A stretch of DNA of 64,000 nt, taken from assembly GCF_054482525.1 (NCBI RefSeq), contig NZ_CM137006.1; one strand, written 5' to 3'. A program made the position numbers and the translations under genes. Below, one piece after another: positions 3,047 to 17,099 of this stretch. Each line of letters starts with the position of its first letter. Within the stretch, counting starts at the first letter, position 1. The notes beneath the pieces are model-generated. The model worked only from the letters and a program-made list of their open reading frames with translations. It was not told where the DNA came from and made no database searches.

Positions 3047-3111
3047 TCTCTTCTTCATGCTCTCTGCTGTAATATTGGCAGGGAGCTTTGCTATTTCTGG
3101 AGTAAACCACC

Positions 3112-4125
3112 ATGTCTGAAGGCTGGAACATTGCCGTCCTGGGCGCAACTGGCGCTGTGGGCGAAGCCCTGCTTGAAACGCTGGCTGAACGTCAGTTCCC
3201 GGTTGGGGAAATTTATGCACTGGCACGTAACGAAAGCGCAGGCGAACAATTGCGCTTTGGTGGTAAGACAATCACCGTGCAGGATGCCGCTGAATTCGAC
3301 TGGACGCAGGCGCAGCTGGCGTTTTTTGTCGCAGGCAAAGAAGCTACCGCTGCCTGGGTTGAAGAAGCGACCAACTCAGGTTGCCTGGTGATCGACAGCA
3401 GCGGATTGTTTGCTCTCGAACCCGACGTACCGCTGGTGGTGCCGGAAGTAAACCCGTTTGTACTGACCGATTACCGCAACCGGAATGTCATCGCCGTACC
3501 GGACAGTCTGACCAGCCAGCTGCTGGCGGCACTGAAACCGTTAATCGATCAGGGCGGTTTGTCGCGTATCAGCGTTACCAGCCTGATTTCAGCCTCCGCC
3601 CAGGGCAAAAAAGCGGTCGATGCGTTAGCGGGGCAGAGTGCTAAATTGCTCAACGGCATTCCGATTGATGAAGAAGATTTCTTCGGGCGTCAGCTGGCGT
3701 TCAACATGCTGCCGTTACTGCCGGATAGCGAAGGTAGCGTGCGTGAAGAACGTCGTATCGTTGGCGAAGTACGCAAAATCCTGCAGGACGAAGGGCTGAT
3801 GATTTCGGCAAGCGTCGTCCAGGCACCGGTATTCTACGGTCATGCCCAGATGGTCAACTTTGAAGCACTGCGTCCGCTGGCAGCAGAAGAAGCGCGTGAT
3901 GCGTTTGCTCAGGGCGAAGATATTGTGCTCTCTGAAGAGAACGAATTCCCGACTCAGGTGGGGGATGCTTCTGGTACGCCGCATCTTTCCGTTGGCTGCG
4001 TACGTAATGACTACGGTATGCCGGAGCAAGTTCAGTTCTGGTCGGTGGCCGATAACGTTCGCTTTGGCGGCGCGCTGATGGCAGTAAAAATCGCCGAGAA
4101 ACTGGTGCAGGAGTATCTGTACTAA
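3112..4125 (+). CDS. usg: USG-1 protein, aspartate-semialdehyde dehydrogenase homologue
   Basis: 337 aa, N-terminal Rossmann motif ([10 protein letters not shown]); immediately upstream of and overlapping truA. Confidence 0.9.
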
Positions 4126-9510: not shown

Positions 9511-11028
9511 ATGTGCGGTATTGTCGGTATCGCCGGTGTTATGCCGGTTAACCAGTCGATTTATGATGCCTTAACGGTGCTTCAGCATCGCGGTCAGGAT
9601 GCCGCCGGCATCATCACCATAGATGCCAATAACTGCTTCCGTTTGCGTAAAGCGAACGGGCTGGTGAGCGATGTATTTGAAGCTCGCCATATGCAGCGTT
9701 TGCAGGGCAATATGGGCATTGGTCATGTGCGTTACCCTACGGCTGGCAGCTCCAGCGCCTCTGAAGCGCAGCCGTTTTACGTTAACTCTCCGTATGGCAT
9801 TACGCTTGCCCACAACGGCAATCTGACCAACGCGCATGAGTTACGTAAAAAACTGTTTGAAGAAAAACGCCGCCACATCAACACCACTTCCGACTCGGAA
9901 ATTCTGCTTAATATCTTCGCCAGCGAGTTGGACAACTTCCGCCACTACCCGCTGGAAGCCGACAATATTTTCGCTGCCATTGCTGCCACAAACCGCTTAA
10001 TCCGCGGCGCGTATGCCTGCGTGGCGATGATTATCGGCCATGGTATGGTTGCTTTCCGCGATCCAAACGGGATTCGTCCGCTGGTACTGGGAAAACGTGA
10101 TATTGACGAGAACCGTACAGAATATATGGTCGCTTCCGAAAGCGTAGCGCTCGATACGCTGGGCTTTGATTTCCTGCGTGACGTCGCGCCGGGCGAAGCG
10201 ATTTACATCACTGAAGAAGGGCAGTTGTTTACCCGTCAATGTGCTGACAATCCGGTCAGCAATCCGTGCCTGTTTGAGTATGTATACTTTGCTCGCCCGG
10301 ACTCGTTCATCGACAAAATTTCCGTTTACAGCGCGCGTGTGAATATGGGTACGAAACTGGGCGAGAAAATTGCCCGCGAATGGGAAGATCTGGATATCGA
10401 CGTGGTGATCCCGATCCCGGAAACCTCGTGTGATATCGCGCTGGAAATTGCTCGTATTCTGGGCAAGCCGTACCGCCAGGGCTTCGTTAAAAACCGCTAT
10501 GTTGGCCGCACCTTTATCATGCCGGGCCAGCAGCTGCGTCGTAAGTCCGTGCGCCGTAAACTGAACGCCAACCGCGCCGAGTTCCGCGATAAAAACGTCC
10601 TGCTGGTCGACGACTCCATCGTCCGTGGCACCACTTCTGAGCAGATTATCGAGATGGCACGCGAAGCCGGAGCGAAGAAAGTGTATCTCGCTTCTGCGGC
10701 ACCGGAAATTCGCTTCCCGAACGTTTATGGTATTGATATGCCGAGCGCCACGGAACTGATCGCTCACGGTCGCGAAGTAGATGAAATTCGCCAGATCATC
10801 GGTGCTGACGGGTTGATTTTCCAGGATCTGAACGATCTGATCGAAGCCGTTCGCGCTGAAAACCCGGATATTCAGCAGTTTGAGTGTTCGGTGTTCAACG
10901 GCGTTTACGTCACCAAAGATGTTGATCAGGGCTACCTCGATTTCCTCGATACTTTACGTAATGACGACGCCAAAGCAGTGCAACGTCAGAACGAAGTGGA
11001 AAATCTCGAAATGCATAACGAAGGATGA
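9511..11028 (+). CDS. purF: Amidophosphoribosyltransferase (glutamine-PRPP amidotransferase)
   Basis: 505 aa; N-terminal MCGIVGI (Ntn Cys after Met); PRPP-binding motif [13 protein letters not shown]. Confidence 0.97.
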
Positions 11029-11038
11029 TGCCTTCGCT

Positions 11039-11061
11039 CAGGGTGCCGGTCTGGCACCCTG
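11039..11061 (+). other. GC-rich hairpin between purF and ubiX (no U-tract)
   Basis: CAGGGTGCC-GGTCT-GGCACCCTG, 9-bp stem, 11 nt after the purF stop. Confidence 0.5.
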
Positions 11062-11122
11062 ACTTGCAACTCCCGCCGAAATCCTGCAAAGTCTGCCTGC
11101 AAGTCTGACAGGGCAACTATTT

Positions 11123-11692
11123 ATGAAACGACTCATTGTAGGCATCAGCGGTGCCAGCGGCGCGATTTATGGCGTGCGCTTATTACAGGTTCTGCGCGAT
11201 GTCGCAGATGTTGAAACGCATCTGGTGATGAGCCAGGCCGCGCGCCAGACCTTATCCCTCGAAACGGATTTTTCCCTGCGCGAAGTGCAGGCATTAGCCG
11301 ATGTGACGCACGATGCGCGCGATATTGCTGCCAGCATTTCTTCCGGTTCTTTCCAGACACTGGGGATGGTGATTTTACCCTGTTCAATCAAAACCCTGTC
11401 CGGCATTGTCCATAGCTATACTGATGGCTTACTGACCCGTGCGGCAGATGTTGTGCTGAAAGAGCGTCGCCCGCTGGTGCTCTGCGTGCGTGAAACACCA
11501 TTGCACTTAGGCCATCTGCGTTTAATGACCCAGGCGGCAGAAATCGGTGCGGTGATTATGCCTCCCGTTCCGGCGTTTTATCATCGCCCGCAATCCCTTG
11601 ATGATGTGATAAATCAGACGGTTAACCGTGTACTCGATCAATTCACCATAACGCTTCCTGAAGATCTCTTTGCCCGCTGGCAGGGCGCATAA
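11123..11692 (+). CDS. ubiX: Flavin prenyltransferase UbiX
   Basis: 189 aa; MKRLIVGISGASGAIYG flavoprotein fold motif; downstream of purF. Confidence 0.95.
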   Translation: MKRLIVGISGASGAIYGVRLLQVLRDVADVETHLVMSQAARQTLSLETDFSLREVQALADVTHDARDIAASISSGSFQTLGMVILPCSIKTLSGIVHSYTDGLLTRAADVVLKERRPLVLCVRETPLHLGHLRLMTQAAEIGAVIMPPVPAFYHRPQSLDDVINQTVNRVLDQFTITLPEDLFARWQGA

Positions 11693-11700
11693 CCTCATTG

Positions 11701-11724
11701 TTGCCCTGTTTCAGGGCAATTTTG
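11701..11724 (+). terminator. Intrinsic terminator downstream of ubiX
   Basis: TTGCCCTG-TTTC-AGGGCAA hairpin followed by TTTTGC, 9 nt after the ubiX stop. Confidence 0.55.
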
Positions 11725-11872
11725 CAACCGCGATCAAATCCTCGACATTTTGTTCCTTTCGATGAATCGAAACGCTGCGATTCAACCGCCATACCTGCTA
11801 TCTTCAACTTTAGGACAATAATGCAACGTCTTATTAACATATTTAACGTTGAATGTTACTGTTGTCGTAAAG

Positions 11873-11890
11873 ATGGCATAAGACCTGCAT
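11873..11890 (+). promoter_or_regulatory. Candidate sigma54 (-24/-12) promoter of argT
   Basis: TGGCAT-N5-CTGCAT with GG at 11875-11876 and GC at 11887-11888 (correct 11-nt register), about 70 nt upstream of the argT ATG; argT is known to be under Ntr control. Confidence 0.55.
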
Positions 11891-11957
11891 GAAAGAGCCT
11901 GCAAACACACAACACAATACACAACATAAAAAAGCCATTTTCACTTGAGGGTTATGT

Positions 11958-12740
11958 ATGAAGAAGTCGATTCTCGCTCTGTCTTTGTTAGTCGGTCTCT
12001 CTGCAGCGGCTTCCAGCTATGCGGCGCTACCGGAGACGGTACGTATCGGAACCGATACCACCTATGCGCCGTTCTCATCGAAAGATGCCAAAGGTGACTT
12101 TGTTGGCTTTGATATCGATCTCGGTAACGAGATGTGCAAACGGATGCAGGTGAAATGTACCTGGGTTGCCAGTGACTTTGACGCGCTGATCCCCTCACTG
12201 AAAGCGAAAAAAATCGACGCCATTATTTCGTCGCTCTCCATTACCGATAAACGTCAGCAGGAGATTGCTTTCTCCGACAAGTTGTACGCCGCAGATTCTC
12301 GTTTGATTGCCGCCAAAGGTTCGCCGATTCAGCCAACGCTGGATTCACTGAAAGGTAAACATGTGGGTGTGCTGCAGGGATCAACCCAGGAAGCTTACGC
12401 TAACGAGACCTGGCGTAGCAAAGGCGTGGATGTGGTGGCCTATGCCAACCAGGATTTGGTCTATTCCGATCTGGCTGCAGGACGTCTGGATGCTGCGTTA
12501 CAAGATGAAGTTGCTGCCAGCGAAGGATTCCTCAAGCAACCTGCTGGTAAAGATTTCGCCTTTGCTGGCTCATCAGTGAAAGACAAAAAATACTTCGGTG
12601 ACGGCACCGGTGTAGGGCTACGTAAAGATGATGCGGAACTGACGGCTGCCTTCAATAAGGCGCTTGGCGAGCTGCGTCAGGACGGCACCTACGACAAGAT
12701 GGCGAAAAAGTATTTTGACTTTAATGTCTACGGTGACTGA
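11958..12740 (+). CDS. argT: Lysine/arginine/ornithine-binding periplasmic protein
   Basis: 260 aa with signal peptide ([22 protein letters not shown]); paralogue of the downstream hisJ. Confidence 0.95.
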
Positions 12741-12799
12741 TACGTCGCAGGGAAGCTGTACCTGATGGAATGATCATCATGGTGCACGCCAGGTTTGTT

Positions 12800-12816
12800 G
12801 CACTATCGTGGTGCAT
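12800..12816 (+). promoter_or_regulatory. Candidate NtrC-binding site upstream of hisJ
   Basis: TGCACT-ATCGT-GGTGCA matches the NtrC consensus TGCACC-N5-GGTGCA at 11 of 12 positions; a TGGCAC -24-like element lies about 100 bp downstream (12898-12903) but its -12 region reads GT rather than GC. Confidence 0.45.
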
Positions 12817-12960
12817 TGAAATGCATACTTAAGCATTTTTAATGAAAAATAATACGTCTAACGGGGCGGGATATTTTGCCTTGATGGTCAATTTTATGGC
12901 ACGATAAGTGTAACAAACCTGTAAATATTCCCTATAAAAAGACTGTCAGTTGAGGACATT

Positions 12961-13743
12961 ATGAAAAAACTGGTGCTATCGCTCTCTCTGGTTCTGGCCT
13001 TCTCCAGCGCAACTGCGGCGTTTGCTGCGATTCCGCAAAACATCCGCATCGGTACCGATCCGACCTATGCGCCATTTGAATCAAAAAATTCACAAGGTGA
13101 ACTGGTTGGCTTCGATATCGATCTGGCAAAGGAGTTGTGCAAACGCATCAATACGCAATGTACGTTTGTCGAAAACCCACTGGATGCGTTAATCCCGTCC
13201 TTAAAAGCGAAGAAGATTGACGCCATCATGTCATCGCTTTCCATTACGGAAAAACGTCAGCAAGAAATAGCCTTCACCGACAAACTGTACGCTGCCGATT
13301 CTCGTCTGGTGGTGGCGAAAAATTCCGACATTCAGCCGACAGTCGAGTCGCTGAAAGGCAAGCGGGTAGGCGTATTGCAGGGCACCACCCAGGAGACGTT
13401 CGGTAATGAACACTGGGCACCAAAAGGCATTGAAATCGTCTCGTATCAGGGGCAGGACAACATTTATTCTGACCTGACTGCCGGACGTATTGATGCCGCG
13501 TTCCAGGATGAGGTCGCTGCCAGCGAAGGTTTCCTCAAGCAGCCAGTCGGTAAAGATTACAAATTCGGTGGCCCGTCTGTTAAAGATGAAAAACTGTTTG
13601 GCGTAGGGACCGGCATGGGCCTGCGTAAAGAAGATAACGAACTGCGCGAGGCACTGAACAAAGCCTTTGCCGAAATGCGCGCTGACGGTACTTACGAGAA
13701 ATTAGCGAAAAAGTACTTCGATTTTGATGTTTATGGTGGTTAA
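12961..13743 (+). CDS. hisJ: Histidine-binding periplasmic protein
   Basis: 260 aa with signal peptide; high similarity to argT; first gene of hisJQMP. Confidence 0.95.
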
Positions 13744-13832
13744 TCGCCATCGGTGAAAGAAAGCCCGCTCCCTTCGGGTAACCGGAGGGAGACAAGAGGC
13801 GGTAATTCACCACACACGACAGGACAGGCTGC

Positions 13833-14519
13833 ATGTTGTATGGGTTTTCAGGTGTTATTTTACAGGGTGCGCTCGTCACGCTGGAGCTGGCTATCAGCTC
13901 TGTAGTGCTCGCCGTAATCATCGGTTTAATTGGCGCTGGCGGTAAGCTCTCGCAAAATCGGCTTTCGGGCCTTATTTTCGAAGGCTACACCACGCTGATT
14001 CGTGGCGTGCCGGACTTGGTGTTGATGCTGCTGATTTTCTACGGTTTGCAGATTGCACTAAACACGGTGACGGAGGCGATGGGCGTCGGGCAGATTGATA
14101 TTGATCCGATGGTCGCAGGTATTATCACTCTCGGTTTTATCTACGGTGCTTACTTTACCGAAACGTTCCGTGGCGCGTTTATGGCTGTGCCGAAAGGACA
14201 TATAGAAGCGGCGACGGCGTTCGGTTTTACTCGTGGGCAAGTGTTTCGGCGGATCATGTTTCCGGCGATGATGCGTTACGCCCTGCCAGGCATTGGCAAC
14301 AACTGGCAGGTGATCCTTAAATCTACCGCACTGGTTTCGTTACTTGGCCTGGAAGATGTGGTCAAAGCCACGCAGCTGGCAGGCAAAAGTACCTGGGAAC
14401 CGTTCTATTTCGCCATCGTTTGTGGCGTGATTTACCTGGTTTTCACCACCGTTTCCAATGGTGTGCTGCTGTTCCTTGAGCGCCGCTACTCCGTGGGTGT
14501 GAAGAGGGCTGACCTGTGA
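13833..14519 (+). CDS. hisQ: Histidine ABC transporter permease HisQ
   Basis: 228 aa polytopic membrane ORF with ABC permease EAA-like loop. Confidence 0.95.
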   Translation: MLYGFSGVILQGALVTLELAISSVVLAVIIGLIGAGGKLSQNRLSGLIFEGYTTLIRGVPDLVLMLLIFYGLQIALNTVTEAMGVGQIDIDPMVAGIITLGFIYGAYFTETFRGAFMAVPKGHIEAATAFGFTRGQVFRRIMFPAMMRYALPGIGNNWQVILKSTALVSLLGLEDVVKATQLAGKSTWEPFYFAIVCGVIYLVFTTVSNGVLLFLERRYSVGVKRADL

Positions 14520-15232
14520 TCGAAATCTTACATGAATACTGGAAACCGCTGCTGTGGACTGACGGTTATCGCTTTACTGGCGTGGCGATCACCCTGTGGC
14601 TGCTGATTTTGTCGGTAGTGATAGGCGGAGTCCTGGCGCTGTTTCTGGCGATTGGTCGCGTCTCAAGTAATAAATACATCCAGTTTCCAATCTGGTTATT
14701 TACCTATATTTTTCGCGGTACGCCGCTGTATGTTCAGTTGCTGGTGTTCTATTCCGGCATGTACACGCTGGAAATTGTTAAGGGAACCGAGTTCCTTAAC
14801 GCCTTTTTTCGCAGTGGCCTGAACTGTACCGTGCTGGCGCTGACGCTCAACACCTGCGCTTACACTACCGAGATTTTTGCCGGGGCAATCCGTTCAGTGC
14901 CGCATGGGGAAATTGAAGCCGCCAGAGCCTATGGCTTCTCGACCTTTAAAATGTATCGCTGCATTATTTTGCCATCGGCGCTGCGTATTGCGTTACCGGC
15001 CTACAGCAACGAAGTGATCCTGATGCTGCACTCTACTGCGCTGGCGTTTACGGCCACTGTGCCGGATCTGCTGAAAATAGCCCGCGATATTAACGCCGCC
15101 ACGTATCAACCTTTTACCGCCTTCGGCATTGCCGCGGTGCTCTATTTAATCATCTCTTATGTCCTGATCAGCCTCTTTCGCAGAGCGGAAAAACGCTGGT
15201 TGCAGCATGTGAAACCGTCTTCAACGCACTGA
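14516..15232 (+). CDS. hisM: Histidine ABC transporter permease HisM
   Basis: 238 aa; start overlaps hisQ stop by 4 nt (translational coupling). Confidence 0.95.
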
Positions 15233-15239
15233 GAATACG

Positions 15240-16013
15240 ATGTCCGAGAATAAATTAAACGTTATCGATTTGCACAAACGCTACGGCGAACACGAAGTGC
15301 TGAAAGGGGTCTCACTGCAAGCGAATGCCGGAGATGTCATAAGCATCATCGGATCGTCGGGATCGGGGAAAAGTACCTTTCTGCGCTGCATTAACTTCCT
15401 CGAAAAACCGAGTGAAGGATCGATCGTGGTCAATGGCCAGACGATCAATCTGGTGCGCGACAAAGACGGTCAACTCAAAGTCGCCGATAAAAATCAGCTG
15501 CGCTTACTGCGCACACGCCTGACGATGGTATTCCAGCACTTCAATCTCTGGAGCCATATGACGGTGCTGGAAAACGTCATGGAAGCGCCGATTCAGGTGT
15601 TGGGCCTGAGCAAGCAGGAAGCGCGCGAGCGGGCGGTGAAGTATCTGGCAAAAGTTGGGATAGACGAACGTGCGCAGGGTAAATATCCGGTGCATCTTTC
15701 CGGCGGTCAACAACAGCGTGTTTCTATCGCGCGGGCGCTGGCGATGGAACCGGAAGTTTTACTGTTTGATGAACCTACCTCGGCGCTCGATCCTGAACTG
15801 GTAGGCGAAGTGTTGCGTATTATGCAGCAACTGGCAGAAGAGGGGAAAACCATGGTGGTAGTGACTCACGAAATGGGCTTTGCTCGCCATGTTTCTACTC
15901 ACGTCATTTTCCTCCATCAGGGGAAAATAGAAGAAGAGGGCGCGCCAGAACAGTTATTCGGTAACCCGCAAAGTCCTCGTCTGCAACAGTTCCTTAAAGG
16001 TTCGCTGAAATAA
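15240..16013 (+). CDS. hisP: Histidine ABC transporter ATP-binding protein HisP
   Basis: 257 aa; Walker [13 protein letters not shown] signature LSGGQQQR, Walker [12 protein letters not shown]. Confidence 0.97.
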
Positions 16014-16208
16014 TTTCCTCTCCGGTGGCTAACGCTGCCGGAGTATTTCATGGGGAATTTGCGAGTCCGCTTCCGCTGAAATGTAAAAGTTGCAGTCCGC
16101 TAAAAATACTTCTGAATTCGCTGTCCAAAGATAAAAACTGCCTGCTGCATTGGGTGTTAATCGTGGTTATTGTCGCGTCATCTTAAATTTGAGGGGTGAC
16201 GGAACGCC

Positions 16209-17099
16209 ATGACAATATCGACAACTTCCACGCCGCATGATGCGGTATTTAAATCTTTTTTACGCCATCCAGACACCGCGCGGGATTTTATTGATATTCA
16301 TCTTCCCGCGCCGCTGCGCAAACTGTGTGATTTAACAACGCTTAAACTGGAACCAAACAGTTTTATTGATGAAGACCTGCGGCAATATTATTCCGACCTC
16401 TTGTGGTCTGTGAAAACGCAGGAGGGAGCGGGTTATATTTATGTAGTGATAGAGCACCAAAGTAAGCCGGAAGAATTAATGGCTTTTCGCATGATGCGCT
16501 ATTCCATTGCGGCGATGCAAAACCATCTTGATGCAGGCTATAAAGAGCTTCCATTGGTGATCCCGATGCTGTTTTATCATGGTTGCAGAAGTCCTTATCC
16601 TTATTCACTCTGCTGGCTTGATGAATTTGCCGAGCCTGCGATTGCCCGCAAAATTTATTCATCGGCTTTTCCGCTGGTGGATATTACCGTGGTGCCGGAT
16701 GACGAGATTATGCAACATCGCAAAATGGCGCTGTTGGAGTTAATTCAGAAACATATTCGTCAGCGCGATCTGTTGGGATTAGTCGACCAAATTGTTTCGC
16801 TGCTAGTTACAGGGAACACTAATGACAGACAGCTAAAAGCCCTGTTTAATTACGTATTACAAACGGGGGATGCCCAGCGTTTCCGTGCATTTATTGGTGA
16901 GATAGCGGAACGCGCACCACAAGAAAAGGAGAAACTGATGACCATTGCTGACAGATTACGTGAAGAAGGCGCAATGCAGGGCAAACACGAAGAAGCTCTG
17001 CGTATTGCTCAGGAGATGCTGGAAAAAGGATTTGACCACGAAGTCATCCTGACGCTGACCCGACTTTCACCAGACGATCTTATCGCGCAAAGCCACTAA
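16209..17099 (+). CDS. rpnB: Recombination-promoting nuclease RpnB (YfcI; Rpn/YhgA-like, transposase_31 / PD-(D/E)XK family)
   Basis: 296 aa; [18 protein letters not shown]... typical N-terminus of the Rpn family; K-12 position between hisP and yfcH. Confidence 0.85.

Follow-up and report, generated by a model that had tools for sequence, protein, structure and literature searches.

The ligands of ArgT are lysine, arginine and ornithine; HisJ has histidine as its ligand, binds arginine weakly and, like ArgT, docks on the HisQMP2 permease (PMC6640053). The two binding proteins are reported to share 70% identity (PMC6640053). The window analyzed here is a stretch of 64,000 nucleotides of E. coli DNA (contig NZ_CM137006.1 of NCBI RefSeq assembly GCF_054482525.1). 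In it, argT and hisJ precede the permease genes in the following arrangement:

11958..12740, plus strand: argT, a 260-codon open reading frame for the lysine/arginine/ornithine-binding periplasmic protein (LAO), a 260-aa precursor with a 22-aa signal peptide.
12741..12960, plus strand: argT-hisJ spacer of 220 bp, the hisJQMP control region, which lies outside the repeat.
12961..13743, plus strand: hisJ, a 260-codon open reading frame for the histidine-binding periplasmic protein, a 260-aa precursor; gene 1 of hisJQMP.
13833-14519, plus strand: hisQ (479 bits on NCBIfam HisQ, above cutoff).
14516-15232, plus strand: hisM (465 bits on NCBIfam HisM, above cutoff).
15240-16013, plus strand: hisP (578 bits on NCBIfam HisP, above cutoff).

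The 5' neighbors of argT are cvpA, purF and ubiX. On the 3' side of hisJ, hisQ starts after 90 bp and is followed by hisM and hisP. The coordinates, names, direct orientation and 220-bp spacing that an earlier note had given for the two genes, working from the sequence alone, are exact to the base as judged from open reading frames and equivalog scores. The same note held that both proteins feed the HisQMP permease, and this agrees with the downstream hisQ, hisM and hisP genes and with published work (PMC6640053). The pair is already known biology and shows no anomaly. We put the probability at about 96% that argT and hisJ are an ordinary, ancient tandem duplicate, which is stable and now without mutual recombination.

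Each gene product was scored against both equivalog models. The argT product reaches 583 bits on NF011586, the ArgT equivalog (cutoff 440), with positions 1-260 of 260 covered, and 425 bits on the HisJ model, which is under that model's cutoff of 459. For the hisJ product, the score on the HisJ equivalog, NF011965 (cutoff 459), is 599 bits, whereas the ArgT model yields 435 bits, short of the 440 required there. Mature ArgT can be aligned over its full length with the solved LAO structure from Salmonella (1laf/2lao), with 222 of 238 residues matched. Mature HisJ has the same sequence as PDB 2m8c (100% identity) and shares 234 of 238 residues with 1hpb/1hsl. Mature residue 52, which on the basis of the structural literature we take to be a specificity determinant, is Phe in ArgT and Leu in HisJ, and the same residues are found in 66 of 66 ArgT and 68 of 68 HisJ orthologues among the loci listed. 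A 2.3-kb stretch carrying the pair is 100% identical in E. coli strain 1190, for which RefSeq gives the order ubiX-argT-hisJ-hisQ-hisM-hisP-rpnB. The first gene is thus argT and the second is hisJ, and nothing contradicts this identification. The gene after hisP, at 16209-17099, encodes an Rpn-family recombination-promoting nuclease (RefSeq name rpnB); due to its score of 469 bits on the RpnA equivalog, which is below the cutoff of 583, the family-level assignment alone is secure.

A gapless DNA alignment of argT with hisJ gives 534 identities in 783 positions (68.2%). Identity at codon positions 1, 2 and 3 is 76%, 85% and 43%, respectively, and from the last of these values synonymous sites are judged to be close to saturation. 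The two proteins can be aligned without gaps across all 260 residues, and BLASTP reports 69% identity over 236 aa (E = 1e-129), a value far beyond chance, which makes the earlier note's claim of paralogy right. Homology was also sought in the flanks. Neither the upstream flanks (265 and 220 bp) nor the downstream flanks give a better alignment than shuffling does, with 125 of 300 shuffles (upstream) and 179 of 300 shuffles (downstream) scoring at least as well. A duplication unit reaching beyond the coding sequences was rejected due to this lack of flanking homology.

Two direct repeats that align without gaps and lie 1,003 bp apart could exchange sequence at times. Gene conversion or unequal crossing-over would then put mosaic or chimeric alleles into circulation. 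This possibility, which the earlier note had raised for strains, is weighed here against the published requirements for exchange. For recombination in bacteria, the partners must share an uninterrupted identical block, whose required length is put at no more than about 30 bp (PMC8918686, citing Shen and Huang 1986). Where an exchange spreads into diverged sequence, mismatch repair stops it (PMC8918686). The longest exact match between the two genes in the window is 14 bp, located in a stretch encoding AASEG. By these rules, a maximum block of 14 bp, which falls short of that length, within 32% divergence would make the pair a very poor recombination substrate. No excess of long identical blocks was found, in that 14 bp compares with a codon-shuffle mean of 15.7 bp (p = 0.78). 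The identity profile at synonymous codons of the window pair is flat, ranging from 0.33 to 0.73, and the alignment of 11958-12740 with 12961-13743, which the earlier note had proposed as a check, contains no conversion tract.

Structural products of exchange were sought in complete E. coli genomes, 5,425 of 5,426 of which have a match to the region (the one remaining genome has no match to it at all). A deletion fusion would lose 1,003 bp and leave about 56% of the 2.3-kb query. No argT::hisJ fusion was found, and all 5,425 matching genomes keep at least 80% of the 2.3-kb unit in one place, in a test that is sensitive to structural hybrids and long tracts and blind to short ones. When used alone as queries, argT and hisJ were each found at full length in 5,425 of 5,425 genomes. 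Extra chromosomal places numbered two for the 2.3-kb query, one each for argT, hisJ and hisQMP, and zero for a purF-ubiX query; that is, the argT-hisJ region has a second matching place on one or two E. coli chromosomes. This second place could be counted in favor of exchange, but an extra copy is also seen with the hisQMP query, which would not be expected from crossing-over of argT with hisJ. The extra copy therefore seems to be part of a larger segmental event that includes hisQMP.

Note that two E. coli plasmids carry a hisQ-hisM-hisP-like operon that is only about 75% identical to the chromosomal one (for example NZ_CP157326.2, J53-KPC_Vir-TC, 360,666 bp, at 202081-204111). This operon is presumably foreign, and may possibly have come from a Klebsiella-type virulence or resistance plasmid. 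The 2.3-kb argT-hisJ allele of the window is itself uncommon, being at least 99% identical in 34 of 5,425 genomes, while nearly all others are at about 98%. Among those listed, exact matches to the 9511-16013 neighborhood include strain 1190 (canine) for argT-hisJ and PCN033 for the flanking genes. E. coli B27 has no annotated ubiX between purF and argT (1169-1570 of locus L004, NZ_AP027424.1), and the purF-ubiX query is matched there over only 77% of its length. These observations suggest that ubiX, immediately 5' of argT, has been wholly or largely deleted.

Alleles were compared base by base for 12 diverse E. coli strains and the window (13 sequences). The 12 include the most divergent alleles found, namely argT at 93.5% identity (2020CK-00188) and hisJ at 95.0% (Z1323HEC0067). 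Within-strain identity between argT and hisJ was 67.6-69.1% in 13 of 13 sequences, and no strain among the 12 had raised paralog identity or runs of switched sites. At the 75 polymorphic sites of argT, the hisJ base corresponds to the major allele at 29, to the minor allele at 21 and to neither at 25. For the 69 polymorphic sites of hisJ, the argT base corresponds to the major allele at 29, to the minor allele at 17 and to neither at 23. Where alleles match the paralog, they do so by scattered single third-position changes, and no runs of paralog-matching sites were found in the 12 alleles. Comparison with other strains for conversion tracts, also proposed in the earlier note, thus yielded no mosaic tract in these alleles; the note had held that a pair free of such tracts would be uninteresting, and we have come to the same view. 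A literature search on gene conversion between argT and hisJ found no paper linking the two.

Two allelic features were considered as candidate conversions and rejected. ArgT has Ser205 in the window, and this residue is Pro in several E. coli lineages, in Salmonella LAO and in HisJ. The change to Pro might be read as a conversion toward HisJ. However, Pro205 is also the state of Salmonella LAO and is thus ancestral, from which it follows that Ser205 is a derived single substitution. The argT allele of AR_0077 has 13 differences clustered at nt 400-500; hisJ is matched at 3 of them only, and the cluster was taken to be ordinary allelic variation.

Constraint on the two genes within E. coli is strikingly unequal. 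For hisJ, 66 polymorphic codons have synonymous changes only and 1 has an amino-acid change, and for argT the corresponding numbers are 60 and 8. The window shares its HisJ protein, WP_000737621.1, with 11 of the 12 other strains, even at hisJ DNA identities as low as 95.0%.

Exchange on a longer time scale was assessed across the Enterobacteriaceae. In a four-taxon test with the mature proteins of E. coli and Salmonella, 59 sites support orthology and 0 support grouping by species. At the DNA level, with Salmonella arizonae as the comparison, orthology is favored by 94 sites and grouping by species by 13, not far from the 9 that favor the third topology. All 13 species-grouping sites are third codon positions, with no more than 3 in any 60 nt. 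Nine other genera or lineages gave a DNA outcome like that of Salmonella. Concerted evolution since the Salmonella split, which would leave paralogs closer than orthologs over the whole genes or in tracts, was not found in these tests.

The cross-genus sample was obtained with a degenerate-motif scan of one genome per species (at least 120 loci), and should be considered biased due to the requirement for a conserved protein motif. Gene order was argT then hisJ in 54 of 54 Enterobacteriaceae pairs among the loci listed (the window and 53 others), and within-genome identity of the 53 other pairs was 66.9-76.1% over the mature region. In a neighbor-joining tree of the 67 ArgT and 69 HisJ sequences among the loci listed, each set is monophyletic, and this reciprocal split holds across 54 species. 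The strain-level chimeras, gene conversion and unequal recombination suggested in the earlier note are thus contradicted in the tests run on deletion fusions in genomes, on alleles and on phylogeny, and we consider it very improbable that argT and hisJ exchange sequence.

Also favorable to exchange are two exact runs in the conserved core. When argT alleles of E. coli are compared with hisJ alleles, the longest run is 26 bp and occurs in one allele combination. The longest among the 54 pairs listed is 49 bp, in Enterobacter asburiae INSAq146, at about nt 466-525 of the mature region. Paralogs are already about 90% identical in the conserved core near this run in eight related genomes, so that only 3-4 synonymous coincidences are needed to produce it; the run was held to be non-significant as evidence of conversion, and it may be due to chance. 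Conversions of up to 50 bp in the conserved core (gene nt about 535-595) would be too short to be registered by whole-gene tests. If such events occasionally copied synonymous states in some Enterobacteriaceae, which we think very unlikely, then the 49-bp and 26-bp runs would be their traces.

The origin of the pair was approached through relatives that have one gene in place of two. Single-gene loci number 21 among the loci listed and come from Erwinia, Pantoea, Yersinia, Hafnia, Izhakiella, Winslowiella, Acerihabitans and related genomes. The proteins from these 21 are 70-77% identical to both E. coli ArgT and E. coli HisJ. Wherever flanks were recovered, the order is purF-ubiX-gene-hisQ-hisM-hisP. 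The single-copy locus of Erwiniaceae, Yersiniaceae and Hafniaceae therefore resembles the window in its flanks, permease operon and protein length, and differs from it in having one binding-protein gene, not two. We read this locus as the pre-duplication state, secondary loss being less likely. Because a single copy occupies the same purF-ubiX-hisQMP site in the sister families, the duplication would have taken place in situ, in the ancestor of the Enterobacteriaceae.

The single-copy genes have Phe52, as in ArgT, in 21 of 21 cases among the loci listed. At 24 sites where ArgT and HisJ show near-fixed differences, they carry the ArgT state at 13, the HisJ state at 7 and some other state at 4. 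Of the two copies, HisJ appears the more derived, since the single-copy genes share Phe52 with ArgT and lean toward ArgT at 13 of the 24 sites. When the tree is rooted at its midpoint, the single-copy genes fall with the ArgT clade and HisJ is on the longer branch. This topology, together with the lack of detectable homology between the non-coding flanks of argT and hisJ, could also be produced if one of the genes, most likely hisJ, had been acquired horizontally and inserted beside a resident gene. Such an insertion is set against several findings. ArgT and HisJ align without gaps over their entire 260 residues, and HisJ is about as close to the single-copy genes of the sister families (66-81% identity) as ArgT is (70-80%). 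The 13/7/4 mixture at the 24 sites fits a pre-duplication lineage combined with faster change in HisJ, and the argT-hisJ arrangement is fixed in every sampled member of the Enterobacteriaceae. On the evidence of the sampled loci, horizontal acquisition is regarded as highly unlikely. A protein 88% identical to E. coli HisJ is encoded at 3110-3889 of locus L106 (CACSKA010000009.1), which is labeled Chryseobacterium sp. 18061; this contig, filed under a genus of Bacteroidota, is probably contamination or mislabeled enterobacterial sequence.

The history that we favor, an ancient tandem duplication without later exchange, would proceed as follows. The ancestor of the Enterobacteriaceae would have undergone a single duplication in place, with ubiX on one side and hisQMP on the other. 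One product, ArgT, would have come to bind lysine, arginine and ornithine and the other, HisJ, histidine, with each protein closing around its ligand, and both would dock onto one HisQMP2 ABC importer encoded just downstream, as described in the literature. The copies would come under separate control, with a sigma-54/NtrC-type promoter and a GcvB-type leader for argT and a hisJQMP promoter in the 220-bp spacer. Having diverged to 68% DNA identity, with synonymous sites near saturation, and having both been retained, argT and hisJ would now act as independent single-copy genes under purifying selection. The copies would be too different for recombination, consistent with the failure to detect a crossover product or conversion tract in the window, in E. 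coli or in the family.

Candidate control elements were located in the sequence as follows, the last of them lying between hisJ and hisQ:

11874..11889, plus strand: sigma-54 (-24/-12) promoter-like element upstream of argT, TGGCAT-N5-CTGCA.
11901..11935, plus strand: argT 5' leader, C/A-rich and unstructured (CAAACACACAACACAATACACAACATAAAAAAGCC), of the type bound by the GcvB R1 seed.
12799-12815, argT-hisJ spacer: NtrC-type palindrome, TGCACTATCGTGGTGCA, matching 11 of 12 consensus positions; a motif match only.
12810-12854, argT-hisJ spacer: AT-rich ARG-box-like 18-mers, 14/18; a motif match only.
12897-12912, argT-hisJ spacer: partial sigma-54-like motif, TGGCAC-N5-GTGTA; a motif match only.
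13763..13800, plus strand: strong hairpin in the hisJ-hisQ intercistronic region.

The assignments of these elements to argT and hisJQMP follow the literature or are inferred, and the sequence is consistent with them. The element at 11874-11889 is the sole GG-N10-GC match in the ubiX-argT spacer. Published work attributes argT transcription to a sigma-54 promoter under NtrC activation (PMC6640053), and a genomic SELEX peak for RpoN lies between ubiX and argT (PMC8743547). The argT leader shows no fold (-4.4 kcal/mol, z = +1.3). Among targets of the R1 seed of the small RNA GcvB, argT is listed as verified in Salmonella and conserved in E. coli (PMC9299463); the pairing site in the window may be placed at 11901-11935. 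For hisJQMP, a sigma-70 promoter weakly repressed by ArgR has been described (PMC6640053). Among the 12 other E. coli strains, 11 share the 220-bp length of the argT-hisJ spacer; the exception, at 217 bp, is 2020CK-00188 (2084-2300 of locus L005), which also has the most divergent argT allele (93.5%).

The RNA of 13741-13835 folds at -34.8 kcal/mol (z = -3.7), a stability that 0 of 200 shuffles reach. The hairpin may hold hisJ expression above that of hisQMP, presumably as in the Salmonella operon, in which we take hisJ to be expressed at the higher level. An Rfam scan of 11000-17000 at E <= 1 gave no match, including at this hairpin, and a scan of 11650-13900 for the sigma-70 promoter consensus gave no sites. 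Terminator-like sites numbered 4, versus 2.5 expected; no convincing argT terminator was among them. A stem-loop directly 3' of the argT stop codon was considered as a structured element and set aside as not significant (z = -0.8).

Taken together, argT-hisJ represents a textbook duplication followed by divergence in ligand specificity, with one transporter shared. The comparative picture, in which there was one in-place duplication at the base of the Enterobacteriaceae and the sister families keep a single Phe52 (LAO-like) gene, is unsurprising. The useful result is a negative one, in that the pair should be taken neither for a recombination hotspot nor for a source of chimeric alleles in E. 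coli. Annotation pipelines can safely keep argT and hisJ as separate orthologous groups. Beyond such housekeeping, the result matters little.

A comparable pairing of binding proteins is found in the art cluster, which is another locus with another permease than argT-hisJQMP. To our knowledge, the art pair does not form an adjacent tandem of the argT-hisJ type before permease genes. In artPIQM-artJ of E. coli, artJ and artI are a second paralogous binding-protein pair with differing specificities, for which one QMP2-type permease is presumed (PMC6640053). Their products belong to the same protein superfamily as ArgT and HisJ; the ArgT and HisJ of the window score 177-191 bits on the ArtI/ArtJ models, far under the cutoffs of 510-522. 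The closest described system is argT-hisJQMP of E. coli K-12, in which the genes, their order, their lengths and the 220-bp spacer are the same as in the window. The K-12 and window alleles are 97.7% identical for argT and 98.1% identical for hisJ, and the window HisJ is the K-12 protein WP_000737621.1. The argT-hisJQMP cluster of the window differs from those of K-12 and Salmonella Typhimurium at the level of alleles only.
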